Source: a virus. Taken from it: a DNA stretch of 64,000 nucleotides. Location of the stretch: the IMG/VR virus record IMGVR_UViG_3300021961_000025; one strand, 5' to 3'. Position 1 is the first letter of the stretch. Each line of letters starts with the position of its first letter. Positions 7,906-20,825 of the stretch are shown piece by piece. The translations under genes and the position numbers were made by a program. The notes below the pieces were generated by a model, which saw only the letters and a program-made list of their open reading frames with translations, was not told the origin of the DNA and made no database searches.

Positions 7906-7979
7906 AATGGTGTGGCGGAATGGTTACGCAGAGGATTGCAAATCCTCCTATCCGAGTTCGATTCTCGGCACCATTTCCA
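7906..7979 (+). tRNA. tRNA-Cys (GCA)
   Basis: Cloverleaf: acceptor AATGGTG/CACCATT, D arm GCG/CGC, anticodon arm GAGGA-TTGCAAA-TCCTC, T arm CCGAG-TTCGATT-CTCGG, discriminator U, encoded CCA. Confidence 0.95.
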
Positions 7980-13336: not shown

Positions 13337-13713
13337 GCGAACCTATCTTCCAAAAAGATTTATTCTTTGATGACTCATTTGCTTTGCAAGAAGAATCAAA
13401 GTATACTATAGGTATGAGTGATAAAATAACTTATAAATTTGACGAGAAAAATCTAATCAACGAACTACAGAAGTATGTTGATAAAACTTATTCTGGTCAC
13501 TATAGTAAAAACAAGTTTCAATCGACTGAGTTTATCATCGATTGTGGTCATGGCATGGGATTTGCGTTAGGCAATGTGTTGAAATATACTCAGAGGTATG
13601 GCAAGAAAGATGGATTTAATCGAGCCGATCTTATGAAGATTCTACATTATGCATTAATTGCTCTACACGTACATGACACTACTAACAACAGCGAAAACAA
13701 GGAGAACTTATAA
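13333..13713 (+). CDS. DUF3310-like / T7 gp1.7-like nucleotide kinase family (start may be 13414)
   Basis: HY...FQSTEFI...GFALGNVLKY..RYGKK...DLMKILHY; internal TGCAA-N12-TATACT promoter at 13385-13407. Confidence 0.6.
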   Translation: MSEPIFQKDLFFDDSFALQEESKYTIGMSDKITYKFDEKNLINELQKYVDKTYSGHYSKNKFQSTEFIIDCGHGMGFALGNVLKYTQRYGKKDGFNRADLMKILHYALIALHVHDTTNNSENKENL

Positions 13714-14375
13714 TGAAGTTTAGTAAAGAAACCCAAGCCATTCTAAAGAACTTTGCTGGTATCAACAGCAATCTTCTTTTGAAAGAAGGCAATAAACTGA
13801 GCACAATCAGTGCACAGAAAAACGTAATGGCGACTACGACCATTGCAGAAACATTCAATAAAGATTTTGGTATCTATGACTTGAATGAATTTCTAGGAGC
13901 GATGTCTCTATTTGAAGATCCAGATTTGGAATTTTCAGATAAATATGTAGCAATTAAAAATGGTAAATCATCCATTAAATACTTTGCTGCAGATCCATCA
14001 GTATTGGTTGCACCAACTAAGGATAGTCTTCCAGTAGATGCTGAAGTAGAATTCGATTTGTCTGGCGAACAGCTAGGTATGATTCTTAAAACTGCATCTG
14101 TATTGCGTGCGAATGACGTAGCGATTGTTGCTGAAGATGGTAAACAAAAAGTTATCGTAGGCGATAAGAAAAATGCTACTGCGAACTCTTATGAGTTTGA
14201 CATTGGTGAAGACGATCGTAACTACCGAATCAACATTCGTGTTGAGAATCTAAAAATGGTAATTACAGATTACACAGTAAGTGTTTCAAGCAAGAGGATC
14301 TCTAAATTCTCAGCGAAGAAATCTGATCTTACATATTACGTGGCGATTGAAGCAGACACAAAGTTTAGCAGTTAA
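13713..14375 (+). CDS. 45: sliding clamp
   Basis: MKFSKET..ILKNFAGIN, FGIYDLNEFL, YYVAIE; synteny 45-44-62-regA. Confidence 0.95.
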   Translation: MKFSKETQAILKNFAGINSNLLLKEGNKLSTISAQKNVMATTTIAETFNKDFGIYDLNEFLGAMSLFEDPDLEFSDKYVAIKNGKSSIKYFAADPSVLVAPTKDSLPVDAEVEFDLSGEQLGMILKTASVLRANDVAIVAEDGKQKVIVGDKKNATANSYEFDIGEDDRNYRINIRVENLKMVITDYTVSVSSKRISKFSAKKSDLTYYVAIEADTKFSS

Positions 14376-15743: not shown

Positions 15744-16160
15744 ATGTCTAATGAGATGATCTATTACGATTGGACTCCTGAGTCCATGCTTGAAGTGAGT
15801 CTACCTGAACCAGATAATTTTCTAAAGGTCAGAGAAACACTAACAAGAATTGGCATTGCGTCAAGAACCGATAAGAAACTTTATCAATCTTGTCACATTT
15901 TGCATAAACAAGGACGATACTTCATCGTTCATTTTAAAGAACTATTTGCTCTTGATGGTAAAGAGTCAAATATTACTATAAATGATGTTGAACGTCGTAA
16001 CACTATTGCTAATCTTCTGTCAGATTGGAATCTATTAAAAGTTATGGATTCTACTAAGGCAGAACCTAAAGCATCCCTATCACAAATCAAAGTGTTAACG
16101 CACAAAGAAAAAGGTGAGTGGGAACTTGTACCGAAATATAATATCGGTAAAAAGAAGTAA
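15744..16160 (+). CDS. regA: translational repressor RegA
   Basis: DNFLKVRETLTRIGIAS, LYQSCHILHKQGRYFIVHFKELF. Confidence 0.97.
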   Translation: MSNEMIYYDWTPESMLEVSLPEPDNFLKVRETLTRIGIASRTDKKLYQSCHILHKQGRYFIVHFKELFALDGKESNITINDVERRNTIANLLSDWNLLKVMDSTKAEPKASLSQIKVLTHKEKGEWELVPKYNIGKKK

Positions 16161-16163
16161 AAC

Positions 16164-16302
16164 CATTAGGTGAAACTAATGAATTCCCTTAGTTGTTTTT
16201 GAGGGTTGTTGTACTAAGTATTAATGTACTCATTTTGAGTGCGCTCCTCAATCGAGATCTGCTTCGGCTCTCTCGAGATATGTGAGAAACATTTTTAGGA
16301 GA
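16164..16302 (+). ncRNA. candidate structured 5' leader of pqqA
   Basis: Four hairpins, including a TCGAGA/TCTCGA stem capped by GC-TTCG-GC. Confidence 0.4.
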
Positions 16303-16309
16303 TAATACC

Positions 16310-16381
16310 ATGTGGACAAAACCAACAGCAACTGAAATGCGTTTCGGATTTGAAATTACTATGTACGTATGTAACAAGTAA
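16310..16381 (+). CDS. pqqA: pyrroloquinoline quinone precursor peptide PqqA (23 aa, not in ORF track)
   Basis: MWTKPTATEMRFGFEITMYVCNK*: MWxKP start and GFExTMY core with E-x3-Y; AGGAGA SD at 16297-16302. Confidence 0.93.
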   Translation: MWTKPTATEMRFGFEITMYVCNK

Positions 16382-16502
16382 TTACAAGGTATTCCAAAAA
16401 CGAATACCAACCGAGCGAAAAAAGAATACTTTAGGGACTTGACATTTTATGAAGAGTCCCTAAATATACCTGTATAGAATATGATTGTATTCTATGCAAA
16501 CC

Positions 16503-16556
16503 CCAGATGCCCTTGTGGATCTGGTTTTTATAAACAAACCTTGCTTAATAAGGAGG
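16503..16556 (+). promoter_or_regulatory. ROSE-like RNA thermometer
   Basis: CCAGAT/ATCTGG hairpin, then CTTGCTT-AAT-AAGGAG pairing the SD with a bulged G (UYGCU motif); upstream of the hsp20 operon. Confidence 0.55.
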
Positions 16557-16563
16557 CAATACT

Positions 16564-16755
16564 ATGTTGAACTATATCAACAACACTCTGGACAGCATTT
16601 CAACTGCTGCCAAAAAATTTGTCGAAACATTTACTTTCGACAGCAAACTAAAATCAATCGCCCACGATCAGATCGATGCTAATACTGCATATGCGAAAGC
16701 TACTGCACGTGTTACCGATACAGTTGTATCTGAATTTGCGAAAGGAGTAAAATAA
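16564..16755 (+). CDS. small amphipathic helical protein (phasin-like?)
   Basis: Strong SD; cotranscribed with hsp20. Confidence 0.5.
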   Translation: MLNYINNTLDSISTAAKKFVETFTFDSKLKSIAHDQIDANTAYAKATARVTDTVVSEFAKGVK

Positions 16756-16756
16756 T

Positions 16757-17200
16757 ATGACACTCCCTAGCATTTTTGGAAACTTCAAAGACTTTGATCG
16801 AGTATGGGTTGGATTTGATGAGCAATTAGAAAGAATGCACGAGATGCATGATATGATTGCTAAAAACATTCCCAACTATCCACCTTATAATCTTAAGAAA
16901 GTGGATGAAAACAAATACGTCATCGAGATGGCAGTAGCTGGCTTTGCAAAAAGCGACATCGAAGTAACAATCGATGATGGCAAACTGATCATCGAAGGTA
17001 AAGTAAAAGAAGACACTGAGGACAAAAAAGATGAACTATTCCTATTTCAAGGTCTAGCAAATCGTGCGTTCAAACGTGCCTTTACATTATCTGATCACAT
17101 CGAGATCAATAATGCAGAATATCTAAATGGTATTCTAAAAGTAGTCTTGGAAAAAGTAATTCCAGAACACAAAAAACCTAAGAAGATCGACGTTAAGTAA
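16757..17200 (+). CDS. hsp20: small heat shock protein Hsp20 (IbpA-like)
   Basis: NYPPYNL, IEMAVAGF, GLANRAFKRAF, A.YLNGIL, PEHKKPKKI. Confidence 0.95.
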   Translation: MTLPSIFGNFKDFDRVWVGFDEQLERMHEMHDMIAKNIPNYPPYNLKKVDENKYVIEMAVAGFAKSDIEVTIDDGKLIIEGKVKEDTEDKKDELFLFQGLANRAFKRAFTLSDHIEINNAEYLNGILKVVLEKVIPEHKKPKKIDVK

Positions 17201-18320: not shown

Positions 18321-20825
18321 ATGGTTGGAGGAAGTTCTTTGTCGTTTTATACTAATGTTCACCAGTGGGGTAACACTTTGCTGGTTCGATCGATCGTCAA
18401 TGGTCGTCACAAACTTGATAAGATTAACTTCAAACCATCTGTTTGGACTACACAAGGCAAAGGTGATACCGAATACAAAACACTTGATGGTCGTCCTTGT
18501 TATGAGATTGAAATAGACTCTATCAAAGAGGCACGTGACTTTGTTGAACGTTACAAAGACGTAGCTGGATTCGAAATCCATGGTCAATTAAACTGGATGT
18601 ATCAGTGGCTGTGGAAACAGTATCCATCTGACATTCAATGGGATATGGATCAGATCCGTATCTATTCTCTCGATATCGAGACTTCTTCAGAAAATGGCTT
18701 TCCGTCTGTCGAGTTAGCAAATGAAGAAGTCCTTCTTATTTCCATTCAAAACTATAACACCAAAGAAATCCTAACTTGGGGTACTCGTCCATACACTGGC
18801 GATGCCACCAACTTCACATTTAAAGAATTCAAAAAAGAATCAGATATGCTAATCGACTTTGTTGATTGGTGGAAGAAGAACACACCTGACGTTGTTACAG
18901 GTTGGAATATTAACTTCTTCGATATCCCATTCTTGTATCGTCGTATCGCTAGAGTGATTGGCGAAGATTACGCTAAACAATTAAGTCCTTGGAAGATTAC
19001 CAAAGAACGTGAGATCTTTGTTCGTGGTAACAAAGAGTTTGCTTATGATATCGCTGGAGTAAGTCAGCTTGACTTCCTAGATCTTTATAAGAAATATACT
19101 TATACAATGCAAGAGTCTTATCGTCTTGACAATATCGCTAAGGTTGAGTTGGGCGAAGAGAAATTAGATCATACTGAATACGCAACGTTCCAGGAATTCT
19201 ATCAAAACAATTGGAATAAGTTTGTTGAGTATAACGTTCACGACGTTGTGTTGGTTGACAAACTCGAAGATAAAATGCGATTGATTGAACTTCAATTGAC
19301 TATGGCGTATGGTGGTAAGATTAATTATGAAGATGTATTCTCACAAGTTAGAATGTGGGATATGCTTGTTCATAATCACTTACGTGAAGACAATATCATT
19401 ATCCCTCCGAAAAAATCTAATAGCAAATCCTCTCAATATGAGGGTGCTTATGTAAAAGATCCATTGGTTGGTATGCATAAGTGGATTGCTTCATTTGACT
19501 TGAACTCTCTATATCCACATTTGATTATGCAATATAATATCTCACCTGAAACTCTTTTGCCTTATGGTGAAAAGTCTGGTGTTGAACATTACCTACGTAA
19601 CAAAGCAGAACCACAAACTGATGTAGCTGTTGCTGCAAATGGTAGTTGTTATCGAAAAGATAAGATTGGTGTATTCCCTAAGATTATGGAAGATCTTTAT
19701 CGTGAGCGAACAGTAGCGAAAAAAGAAATGCTTGCTGCTGAACAACAGTATCAGAATACAAAAGATCCTGCGTATAAAAAGATTATCTCTCGAAAGAACA
19801 ATCTACAAATGGCGATGAAGATCGCATTGAACTCTGCTTATGGTGCAATGGGTAATGAATGGTTCCGATACTTTGATATTCGTATGGCTGAAGCAATTAC
19901 AGTTTCTGGTCAGTTATCCATTCGTTGGATTCACGATAAGATGAATGAGTATCTTAATAAGATTATCGGAACGACTGGCGTAGATTATATTATTGCTGTT
20001 GATACCGATTCAATTTATGTAACGTTTGAAAAACTAATTGATAAAGTATTTACGGAAGAACAACAAAAAGATACAGCAAAGGTTATTCGTTTTATGGATA
20101 AGATTTGCGAAGAGAAGTTTCAACCATTCATTGATGATTGTTATGTTGATCTCGCAAAACGTATGAATGCGTTTGATCAAAAGATGAATATGAAACGAGA
20201 AGTATTGGCTGACAAAGGTATCTGGACTGCCAAGAAACGATATGTTCTTTCAGTGCATAACTCTGAGGGTGTTCAATACGCTGAACCAAAATTAAAAGTA
20301 ATGGGATTGGAGATGATTAAATCTTCAACTCCTCAAGCAATTCGTGAAGCATTGCGACATGCTTTACCAGTTATTCTCCATAAAACTCAATCAGATCTTT
20401 ACTCCTTTATTAATGAGTTTCGTGAGAAGTATGATACCTTATCGGTCGAGGACATTGCGTTTCCTAGATCGGTAAATGGTATCAAGACGTATGGTGATCC
20501 TTCACACATTTATACTAAAGGAACACCATTCCATTGTCGTGGTGCATTAGTTTATAATTATCATCTTAAAGATAAAAAATTAACTAATCGTTATCCATTG
20601 ATTAAAGAGGGCGAAAAGATTAAGTATGTATTCTTGAAAGTCCCTAACACTGTGCAAGAAAACGTCATTTCTTTCATATCTGAATTACCGAAAGAACTGG
20701 ATCTTCACAAATACATAGACTATGATATGCAATTCGAGAAGTCTTTTCTAGATGCTTTACAAATCGTTGTCCATCCATTAGGTTGGAAGGTAAGGGAAAC
20801 AGCTAGTCTTGAAGACTTCTTCTAA
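18321..20825 (+). CDS. 43: family B DNA polymerase (start probably TTG 18339)
   Basis: DIET exonuclease motif, SFDLNSLYPH, KIALNSAYG, DTDS, KKRY, C-terminal SLEDFF clamp-binding motif. Confidence 0.98.
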   Translation: MVGGSSLSFYTNVHQWGNTLLVRSIVNGRHKLDKINFKPSVWTTQGKGDTEYKTLDGRPCYEIEIDSIKEARDFVERYKDVAGFEIHGQLNWMYQWLWKQYPSDIQWDMDQIRIYSLDIETSSENGFPSVELANEEVLLISIQNYNTKEILTWGTRPYTGDATNFTFKEFKKESDMLIDFVDWWKKNTPDVVTGWNINFFDIPFLYRRIARVIGEDYAKQLSPWKITKEREIFVRGNKEFAYDIAGVSQLDFLDLYKKYTYTMQESYRLDNIAKVELGEEKLDHTEYATFQEFYQNNWNKFVEYNVHDVVLVDKLEDKMRLIELQLTMAYGGKINYEDVFSQVRMWDMLVHNHLREDNIIIPPKKSNSKSSQYEGAYVKDPLVGMHKWIASFDLNSLYPHLIMQYNISPETLLPYGEKSGVEHYLRNKAEPQTDVAVAANGSCYRKDKIGVFPKIMEDLYRERTVAKKEMLAAEQQYQNTKDPAYKKIISRKNNLQMAMKIALNSAYGAMGNEWFRYFDIRMAEAITVSGQLSIRWIHDKMNEYLNKIIGTTGVDYIIAVDTDSIYVTFEKLIDKVFTEEQQKDTAKVIRFMDKICEEKFQPFIDDCYVDLAKRMNAFDQKMNMKREVLADKGIWTAKKRYVLSVHNSEGVQYAEPKLKVMGLEMIKSSTPQAIREALRHALPVILHKTQSDLYSFINEFREKYDTLSVEDIAFPRSVNGIKTYGDPSHIYTKGTPFHCRGALVYNYHLKDKKLTNRYPLIKEGEKIKYVFLKVPNTVQENVISFISELPKELDLHKYIDYDMQFEKSFLDALQIVVHPLGWKVRETASLEDFF

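Follow-up and report, generated by a model that had tools for sequence, protein, structure and literature searches.

A stand-alone pqqA gene in the replication module of an uncultured T4-like phage and its probable role as a source of PQQ precursor for a methylotrophic host

The pqqA gene and its phage context

The window, by which we mean the whole 64-kb stretch of viral DNA that was analysed, carries on its plus strand an open reading frame at 16310-16381 that consists of 23 codons and a stop and is translated as MWTKPTATEMRFGFEITMYVCNK. The first-pass annotation, which was made from the sequence alone, had taken this small frame for pqqA, the gene of the peptide precursor of PQQ, and had asked for a search with profile models. 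In fact both of the available models recognise the peptide, PF08042 (Pfam PqqA) with 40.4 bits against a cut-off of 21.1 (E 2.7e-10) and TIGR02107 (NCBIfam) with 43.9 bits against a cut-off of 20 (E 1.4e-11); as sequence matches, these scores are about twice the curated cut-offs and far above chance for small ORFs in 64 kb, and with the ExxxY motif retained the identification holds. The phage peptide keeps Glu15-x3-Tyr19 (E15-I-T-M-Y19), the pair of residues that becomes PQQ, as well as W2 and P5 of the N-terminal W-x-x-P, which align with cellular PqqA (one of the cellular peptides being a fragment), and each of its residues is found in some cellular PqqA. Its length of 23 residues falls inside the PqqA range of about 20-30 residues, and a search of all six reading frames showed no second PqqA-like ORF in the window.

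The carrier is an uncultured T4-like myophage, and pqqA sits within its replication module, where the order is clamp, clamp loader, regA, pqqA, hsp20 and DNA polymerase. Upstream lies the gp45 sliding clamp gene (13713-14375), and the clamp loader genes gp44 and gp62 also belong to the module that flanks pqqA; the direct upstream neighbour is the translational repressor gene regA (15744-16160, plus strand; PF01818 151 bits, phrog_242), whose likely start, the ATG at 15744, agrees with where the alignments of its relatives begin. Downstream are hsp20 (16757-17200, plus strand; PF00011 68 bits, phrog_432) and the gp43 DNA polymerase gene (18321-20825), so that pqqA is surrounded by gp45, gp44, gp62, regA, hsp20 and gp43 and is located inside a bona fide phage genome, as is expected of an auxiliary gene. 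The placement between regA and hsp20 that had been described is right as to the two flanking genes but overlooked an unnamed ORF of 63 codons (16564-16755, plus strand), which stands between pqqA and hsp20 and has no match in Pfam or PHROG. The start of the gene that follows the gap downstream of regA is conserved across relatives (CTCGCTTAATAGGAG; in the window, at 16538-16566, CCTTGCTTAATAAGGAGG); in many relatives this is a gene similar to the unnamed ORF of 63 codons, in others it is hsp20. No cultured phage has a gp43 protein with more than 53% identity to that of the window, the nearest ones being cyanophages (cyanomyophages), and thus the phage is without a close cultured relative. The sole tRNA gene of the window is a tRNA-Cys (GCA) at 7906-7979.

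A further claim, that pqqB-E are lacking from the window, stands as well. When PqqB, PqqC, PqqD and PqqE of Ca. Methylopumilus universalis and XoxF of a Methylophilaceae-like MAG from Tara Oceans were used as tblastn queries, no match to pqqB-E or xoxF was obtained in the 64-kb window (best E 0.09), and therefore the phage region carries the precursor only. Nor were these genes found in 120 viral pqqA loci (of at least 120) or in the related T4-like loci, and they may sit in the phage genome beyond the 64-kb window. Adjacency to pqqBCDE is a usual mark of pqqA that the phage gene does not show; this does not exclude it from the family, because the orphan copies of Methylophilaceae are without such neighbours too.

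Putative expression signals and predicted RNA structure around pqqA

Moving from regA towards pqqA, two plus-strand hairpins come first (16164-16181 and 16186-16205; terminator scan and MFE helices), the second of which is terminator-like with a weak T-rich tail; a CTAATG/CATTAG hairpin after regA is also present in relatives. They are followed by the box TAAGTATTAATGT (16215-16227, plus strand), a candidate -10-like element that is possibly a promoter element of the pqqA cassette. Among the 22 distinct related T4-like pqqA cassettes, about 15 have a TAAGTA or TATAAT box with a hairpin immediately behind it, and the hairpin in this first position has at least six different stem sequences in the relatives. 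By comparison, the TAAGTA box lies upstream of just 4 of 123 cellular pqqA copies. We also considered TAAGTATTAATGT as a general promoter of the phage and rejected it, since 6 sites agree with it when as many as 2 mismatches are allowed, where 5.4 would be expected, and the box is not enriched elsewhere in the window. As for the TATAAATA late promoter, it is absent upstream of the window pqqA, and some relatives have one 88 nt upstream.

In the leader the MFE helices on the plus strand are predicted at 16226-16242, 16252-16276 (with GCUUCGGC at the tip) and 16280-16292. The layout shared by the leaders was judged by inspection only, and RNAalifold on a MAFFT alignment of six leaders returned no consensus structure. 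The Shine-Dalgarno sequence that had been claimed is indeed there, as AGGAG at 16297-16301, 8 nt before the ATG. Its GGAG core is predicted to be paired with a probability of 0.86-0.99 in four transcript models, a purely thermodynamic prediction, and with the ribosome binding site sequestered as modelled, translation of pqqA may be weak or conditional. Possible anti-SD stretches are seen in the leader, namely CUCCU at 16244-16248 and a CU-rich run near 16269-16274, and the sequestering is not obviously conserved among relatives.

Behind the gene, three more plus-strand hairpins are given by the MFE helices (16388-16408, 16430-16464 and 16471-16498), and an intrinsic-terminator-like hairpin (CCAGAU/AUCUGG) followed by TTTTT, recognised from sequence and helices at 16503-16530 on the same strand, probably marks where the pqqA transcript ends. 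Compared with shuffles, the fold of 16230-16540 reaches a z of -5.4, and Rfam gave no match for the window pqqA leader or tail. Together, the box and the leader hairpins can be read as a phage-specific expression unit in which the box presumably acts as promoter.

Most of the T4-like relatives differ in the region that follows, for their pqqA is followed by a conserved structured RNA-like element; the window is without it and has three unrelated hairpins in its place. Pieces of this element are seen in the gap after regA in 63 of 80 contigs anchored on RegA, whether these carry pqqA or not; they include TCCCnnnCGGGATGGGAAC, CTTCACCTTAGGACC and GCTGGAnnTCGTAACCAGC, and then a terminator (for example L300:5100-5290, L319:5690-5860 and L323:5800-5950). 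No Rfam family was found for the element at gathering or E-value thresholds. In the ten related loci that were scanned with Rfam at its gathering threshold, a group I intron was not found either.

Variation and distribution of pqqA in phages and hosts

For a comparison that does not depend on pqqA itself, 80 related T4-like contigs were picked via RegA. Just 3' of regA, 24 of the 80 have pqqA; the gene was scored as absent from a contig when a stretch of about 5 kb around regA lacked it, and it may then lie at another site, as in Melnitz. The uncultured T4-like cassettes (for example L247, L248, L300 and L307) share with the window the position after regA and the peptide family, and in many of them also the box-plus-hairpin leader. 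On the tree of gp44 and RegA the window groups with its nearest relatives, the pqqA-bearing L247 and L248, beside a clade free of pqqA. To account for the presence of the gene, parsimony requires 13 changes on this tree, of which well-supported branches force at least 7, and its presence is more clustered than under shuffled labels. In one pair of contigs, L306 and L300, the flanks are near-identical and the difference is a cassette of about 190 nt. In the sister clade free of pqqA (L289:5418-6839; also L275, L292 and L299) the gap between regA and hsp20 measures about 1.4 kb and is almost all one repeat-rich ORF, rich in Thr, Ser and Asn.

The 22 distinct coding versions from the contigs anchored on RegA have pS 0.675 and pN 0.119, a ratio of 0.18; the codons of R11, F12, G13, F14, E15, T17 and Y19 show synonymous changes only, and Glu15 and Tyr19 are invariant across all 22. 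The pqqA of the related cassettes is thus under purifying selection, and the peptide is the thing that is conserved. A second flavour of PqqA (..DMRFGFEITMYIANR) was seen in the T4-like contigs L250, L259, L262, L266, L323 and L325; it is closer to Rhodoferax/Burkholderiales peptides than to those of Methylophilaceae, and by its sequence suggests that related phages live on other PQQ-making betaproteobacteria.

Outside this group, tblastn of the peptide against 50,697 phage records returned 13. Ten of these records are cultured phages of Methylophilales/Methylophilaceae, among which Venkman, MEP301, MEP401, MEP402, P19250A and four Melnitz isolates are named; the other matches are one uncultured spring virus and two weak Acinetobacter matches, one match being due to chance, and no pqqA of a cyanophage or a Pelagibacter phage was found by this search of the 50,697 records. 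The PqqA of Venkman, MEP301, MEP401, MEP402, P19250A and Melnitz is likewise stand-alone, has 23-24 codons and is 68-87% identical to the window peptide, and these cultured methylophages have proven OM43 or LD28 hosts. They differ from the window in the position of pqqA; for instance the Melnitz copy lies beside a tRNA-Leu and far from regA, and Melnitz is not a close relative of the window phage. In five of the ten cultured methylophage records there is no annotation under the pqqA match, and in nearly all of the cultured methylophage records found pqqA itself lacks an annotation, a case of the gene being missed by gene callers. In Melnitz-1, the pqqA directly before tRNA-Leu (L001:3995-4066; MZ577095.1 74882-74953) is unannotated, its true ORF being MKWTKPVAQEMRFGFEVTMYIMTR, and a 'hypothetical protein' CDS has been called over the same bases on the opposite strand. 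Neither the Melnitz paper nor the pelagimyophage paper mentions pqqA.

Cellular genomes and IMG/VR were scanned with a degenerate DNA pattern that fixes the MRFGFExTMY core and is blind to more divergent PqqA. With it at least 120 IMG/VR contigs were found, all those listed having a complete ORF, together with at least 120 cellular loci, and among the matches listed the commonest viral PqqA is identical to the commonest host PqqA. An exact 40-mer taken from the window cassette does not occur in IMG/VR. The likeness to Methylophilaceae PqqA, which had been put forward beforehand, is borne out by these matches, for among those listed the peptides with at least 19 of 23 residues identical to the window PqqA come almost only from Methylophilaceae/Nitrosomonadales records, the best of them (21/23) being from one Tara Oceans MAG and one Methylotenera MAG, while the PqqA of Methylophaga, Burkholderiaceae, Comamonadaceae and Methylococcaceae is identical at 18 of 23 or fewer. 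The GC content of the window is 36.4%, compared with 35.8-38.4% in host loci.

The arrangement of the gene in these bacteria is of interest in its own right. Scattered orphan copies of pqqA, 1 to 9 per genome, are present in all 41 of the 41 sampled Methylophilaceae genomes; three Methylophilaceae-type genomes have 3-4 dispersed copies, and PqqE scores above the curated cut-off in three genomes of this type. In Methylopumilus the pqqBCDE genes are without pqqA in front. A stand-alone, multi-copy pqqA is hence the native state of Methylophilaceae, even in genomes of 1.2-1.3 Mb, and it fits a high demand for a consumable peptide. These chromosomal orphans (PF08042 / TIGR02107) resemble the phage gene in having the same peptide type and in being unlinked from pqqBCDE with several copies per genome; they differ in their upstream regions, as described above for the TAAGTA box, and in that the phage copy lies in a replication module. 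XoxF and pqqBCDE are present in the candidate host genomes, and the host of the phage is most likely a streamlined member of Methylophilaceae (OM43 or Methylopumilus-like), judging from the 23-residue peptide, the GC content and analogy. A comparison of the tRNA-Cys with five Methylophilaceae genomes gave no useful match (best 81% over 29 nt) and so says nothing on the host.

Proposed role, alternative readings and meaning

Taken as a whole, the analysis confirms the observation of the first-pass annotation and supports its reading: the gene is probably a functional stand-alone pqqA, acting as an auxiliary metabolic gene of a lytic T4-like phage that feeds the PqqBCDE pathway of its host in a methylotroph. 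What we observed here, namely the gene identity, the phage context, the lack of the enzymes in the window, the peptide type, the selection and the distribution, provides the ground for this reading. As for the pathway, references cited in PMC7678222 and PMC9851590 have it that PqqA is handed by PqqD to PqqE, a radical SAM enzyme which needs PqqD and makes the Glu-Tyr link, that PqqB and PqqC finish PQQ, and that one PqqA is consumed per PQQ. Moreover, as given in PMC9851590 or papers cited there, the orphan pqqA copies of Hyphomicrobium are expressed and track PQQ output, and according to a study cited in PMC9851590 a cell extract turns added PqqA peptide into PQQ.

On this basis we infer the expression of the gene, the conversion of its product to PQQ and the benefit to the phage, as well as the identity of the host, in the following way. 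After infection pqqA would be transcribed with its hairpin-rich leader and tail, and the 23-residue peptide would enter the PQQ machinery of the host, where PqqD would bind it and PqqE would cross-link Glu15 to Tyr19; host proteases, PqqB and PqqC would then complete PQQ, which would load the periplasmic methanol dehydrogenase XoxF. Infection likely cuts off the host pqqA mRNA, in which case the phage copy would replace host pqqA expression and the stable host enzymes would keep producing PQQ for XoxF. Since one peptide is destroyed per PQQ and the host pqqA mRNA would be lost, the phage would replace only the consumable part of the pathway, and as a result methanol oxidation and the energy supply would continue in the infected cell. 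PQQ is a recycled cofactor, which counts against a need for new synthesis within one infection cycle.

The same mechanism could also operate in another PQQ producer, for instance a different betaproteobacterium or a methylotroph among the marine gammaproteobacteria, instead of Methylophilaceae. The MRFGFExTMY core occurs in Burkholderiaceae, Comamonadaceae, Methylophaga and Methylococcaceae as well, related T4-like contigs carry the ..DMRFGFEITMYIANR flavour near Rhodoferax/Burkholderiales, to which Ile16 of the window belongs, and neither gp43 (at most 53%) nor the tRNA-Cys gave a phylogenetic or tRNA link to Methylophilaceae. Such a host is nevertheless unlikely, as the window peptide agrees at 19-21 of 23 residues with the Methylophilaceae type and at no more than 18 with other taxa among the matches listed, its ends (TATEM...YVCNK) have the Methylophilaceae form, and the cultured carriers all infect Methylophilales. 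A more distant departure would be a peptide that serves as decoy or regulator, for example by occupying PqqD/PqqE or by being turned into a product other than PQQ by phage oxygenases. We regard this as highly improbable: the structured leader does hint at regulated and not bulk expression, but the commonest viral and host peptides are identical among the matches listed, purifying selection maintains the whole core together with the Glu and Tyr that become cross-linked, as expected of a true substrate, and no maturase-like gene is nearby.

The patchy presence of pqqA on the gp44 and RegA tree (13 changes, at least 7 forced), at a site where relatives hold varied inserts, would also suit a neutral passenger, that is a host-derived fragment in a hypervariable region without a role in infection. 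Against this speak the pN/pS of 0.18 with saturated synonymous sites, the intact ORF and SD in every copy among those listed, leader elements that are phage-specific and unlike host upstream regions, and the recurrence of the gene in several cultured methylophages of separate names, genome sizes and hosts, and we give this reading the smallest probability of all. For these T4-like phages we tentatively consider another possibility, which we think somewhat more doubtful than probable, that the pqqA unit is a self-contained mobile expression cassette with at least 7 gains or losses at a hotspot between regA and hsp20 and with a peptide flavour that tracks the host. The proposed cassette would span about 190-370 nt and comprise the promoter-like box, a 5' hairpin, the SD and the 23 codons, in the window also the 3' hairpins and the terminator, and its flavours would be the Methylophilaceae type and the Rhodoferax/Burkholderiales type.

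Returning to the supply of precursor by a functional phage pqqA as the favoured reading, the doubt about novelty that had been expressed beforehand was justified, for pqqA genes of viruses have been published before. In Lake Baikal, viruses that infect Methylophilaceae (VP_266) encode PqqA, and a PQQ boost for methanol dehydrogenase has been proposed for them (Coutinho et al. 2020, Microbiome 8:163, PMC7678222); in addition, pqqA, pqqD and pqqE are listed as virus-encoded in a study of 2026 (PMC13188868). By its published description the VP_266 case is alike in that a virus encodes pqqA but not the biosynthetic enzymes, the host is predicted to be a methylotroph, and the role proposed for the gene is the same. 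It differs in that the Baikal viruses also encode methanol dehydrogenase, of which none was found in the 64-kb window, and in that the present carrier is a T4-like myophage whose pqqA occupies the regA-hsp20 position. What is new here is therefore a further T4-like lineage and a defined locus, the principle being already published.

The OM43 and LD28 Methylophilaceae are major methanol oxidisers of seas and lakes. When a phage carries no more than the consumable precursor for the cofactor of methanol dehydrogenase, it reveals the step that the virus needs protected. The PqqA peptide type, moreover, looks as if it could serve as an inexpensive marker for the hosts of uncultured phages. If the reading as a mobile cassette is true, the cassette would be a marker of shifts to hosts that make PQQ, and in infected methylotrophs PQQ would be limited by the supply of precursor and not by the level of the enzymes.
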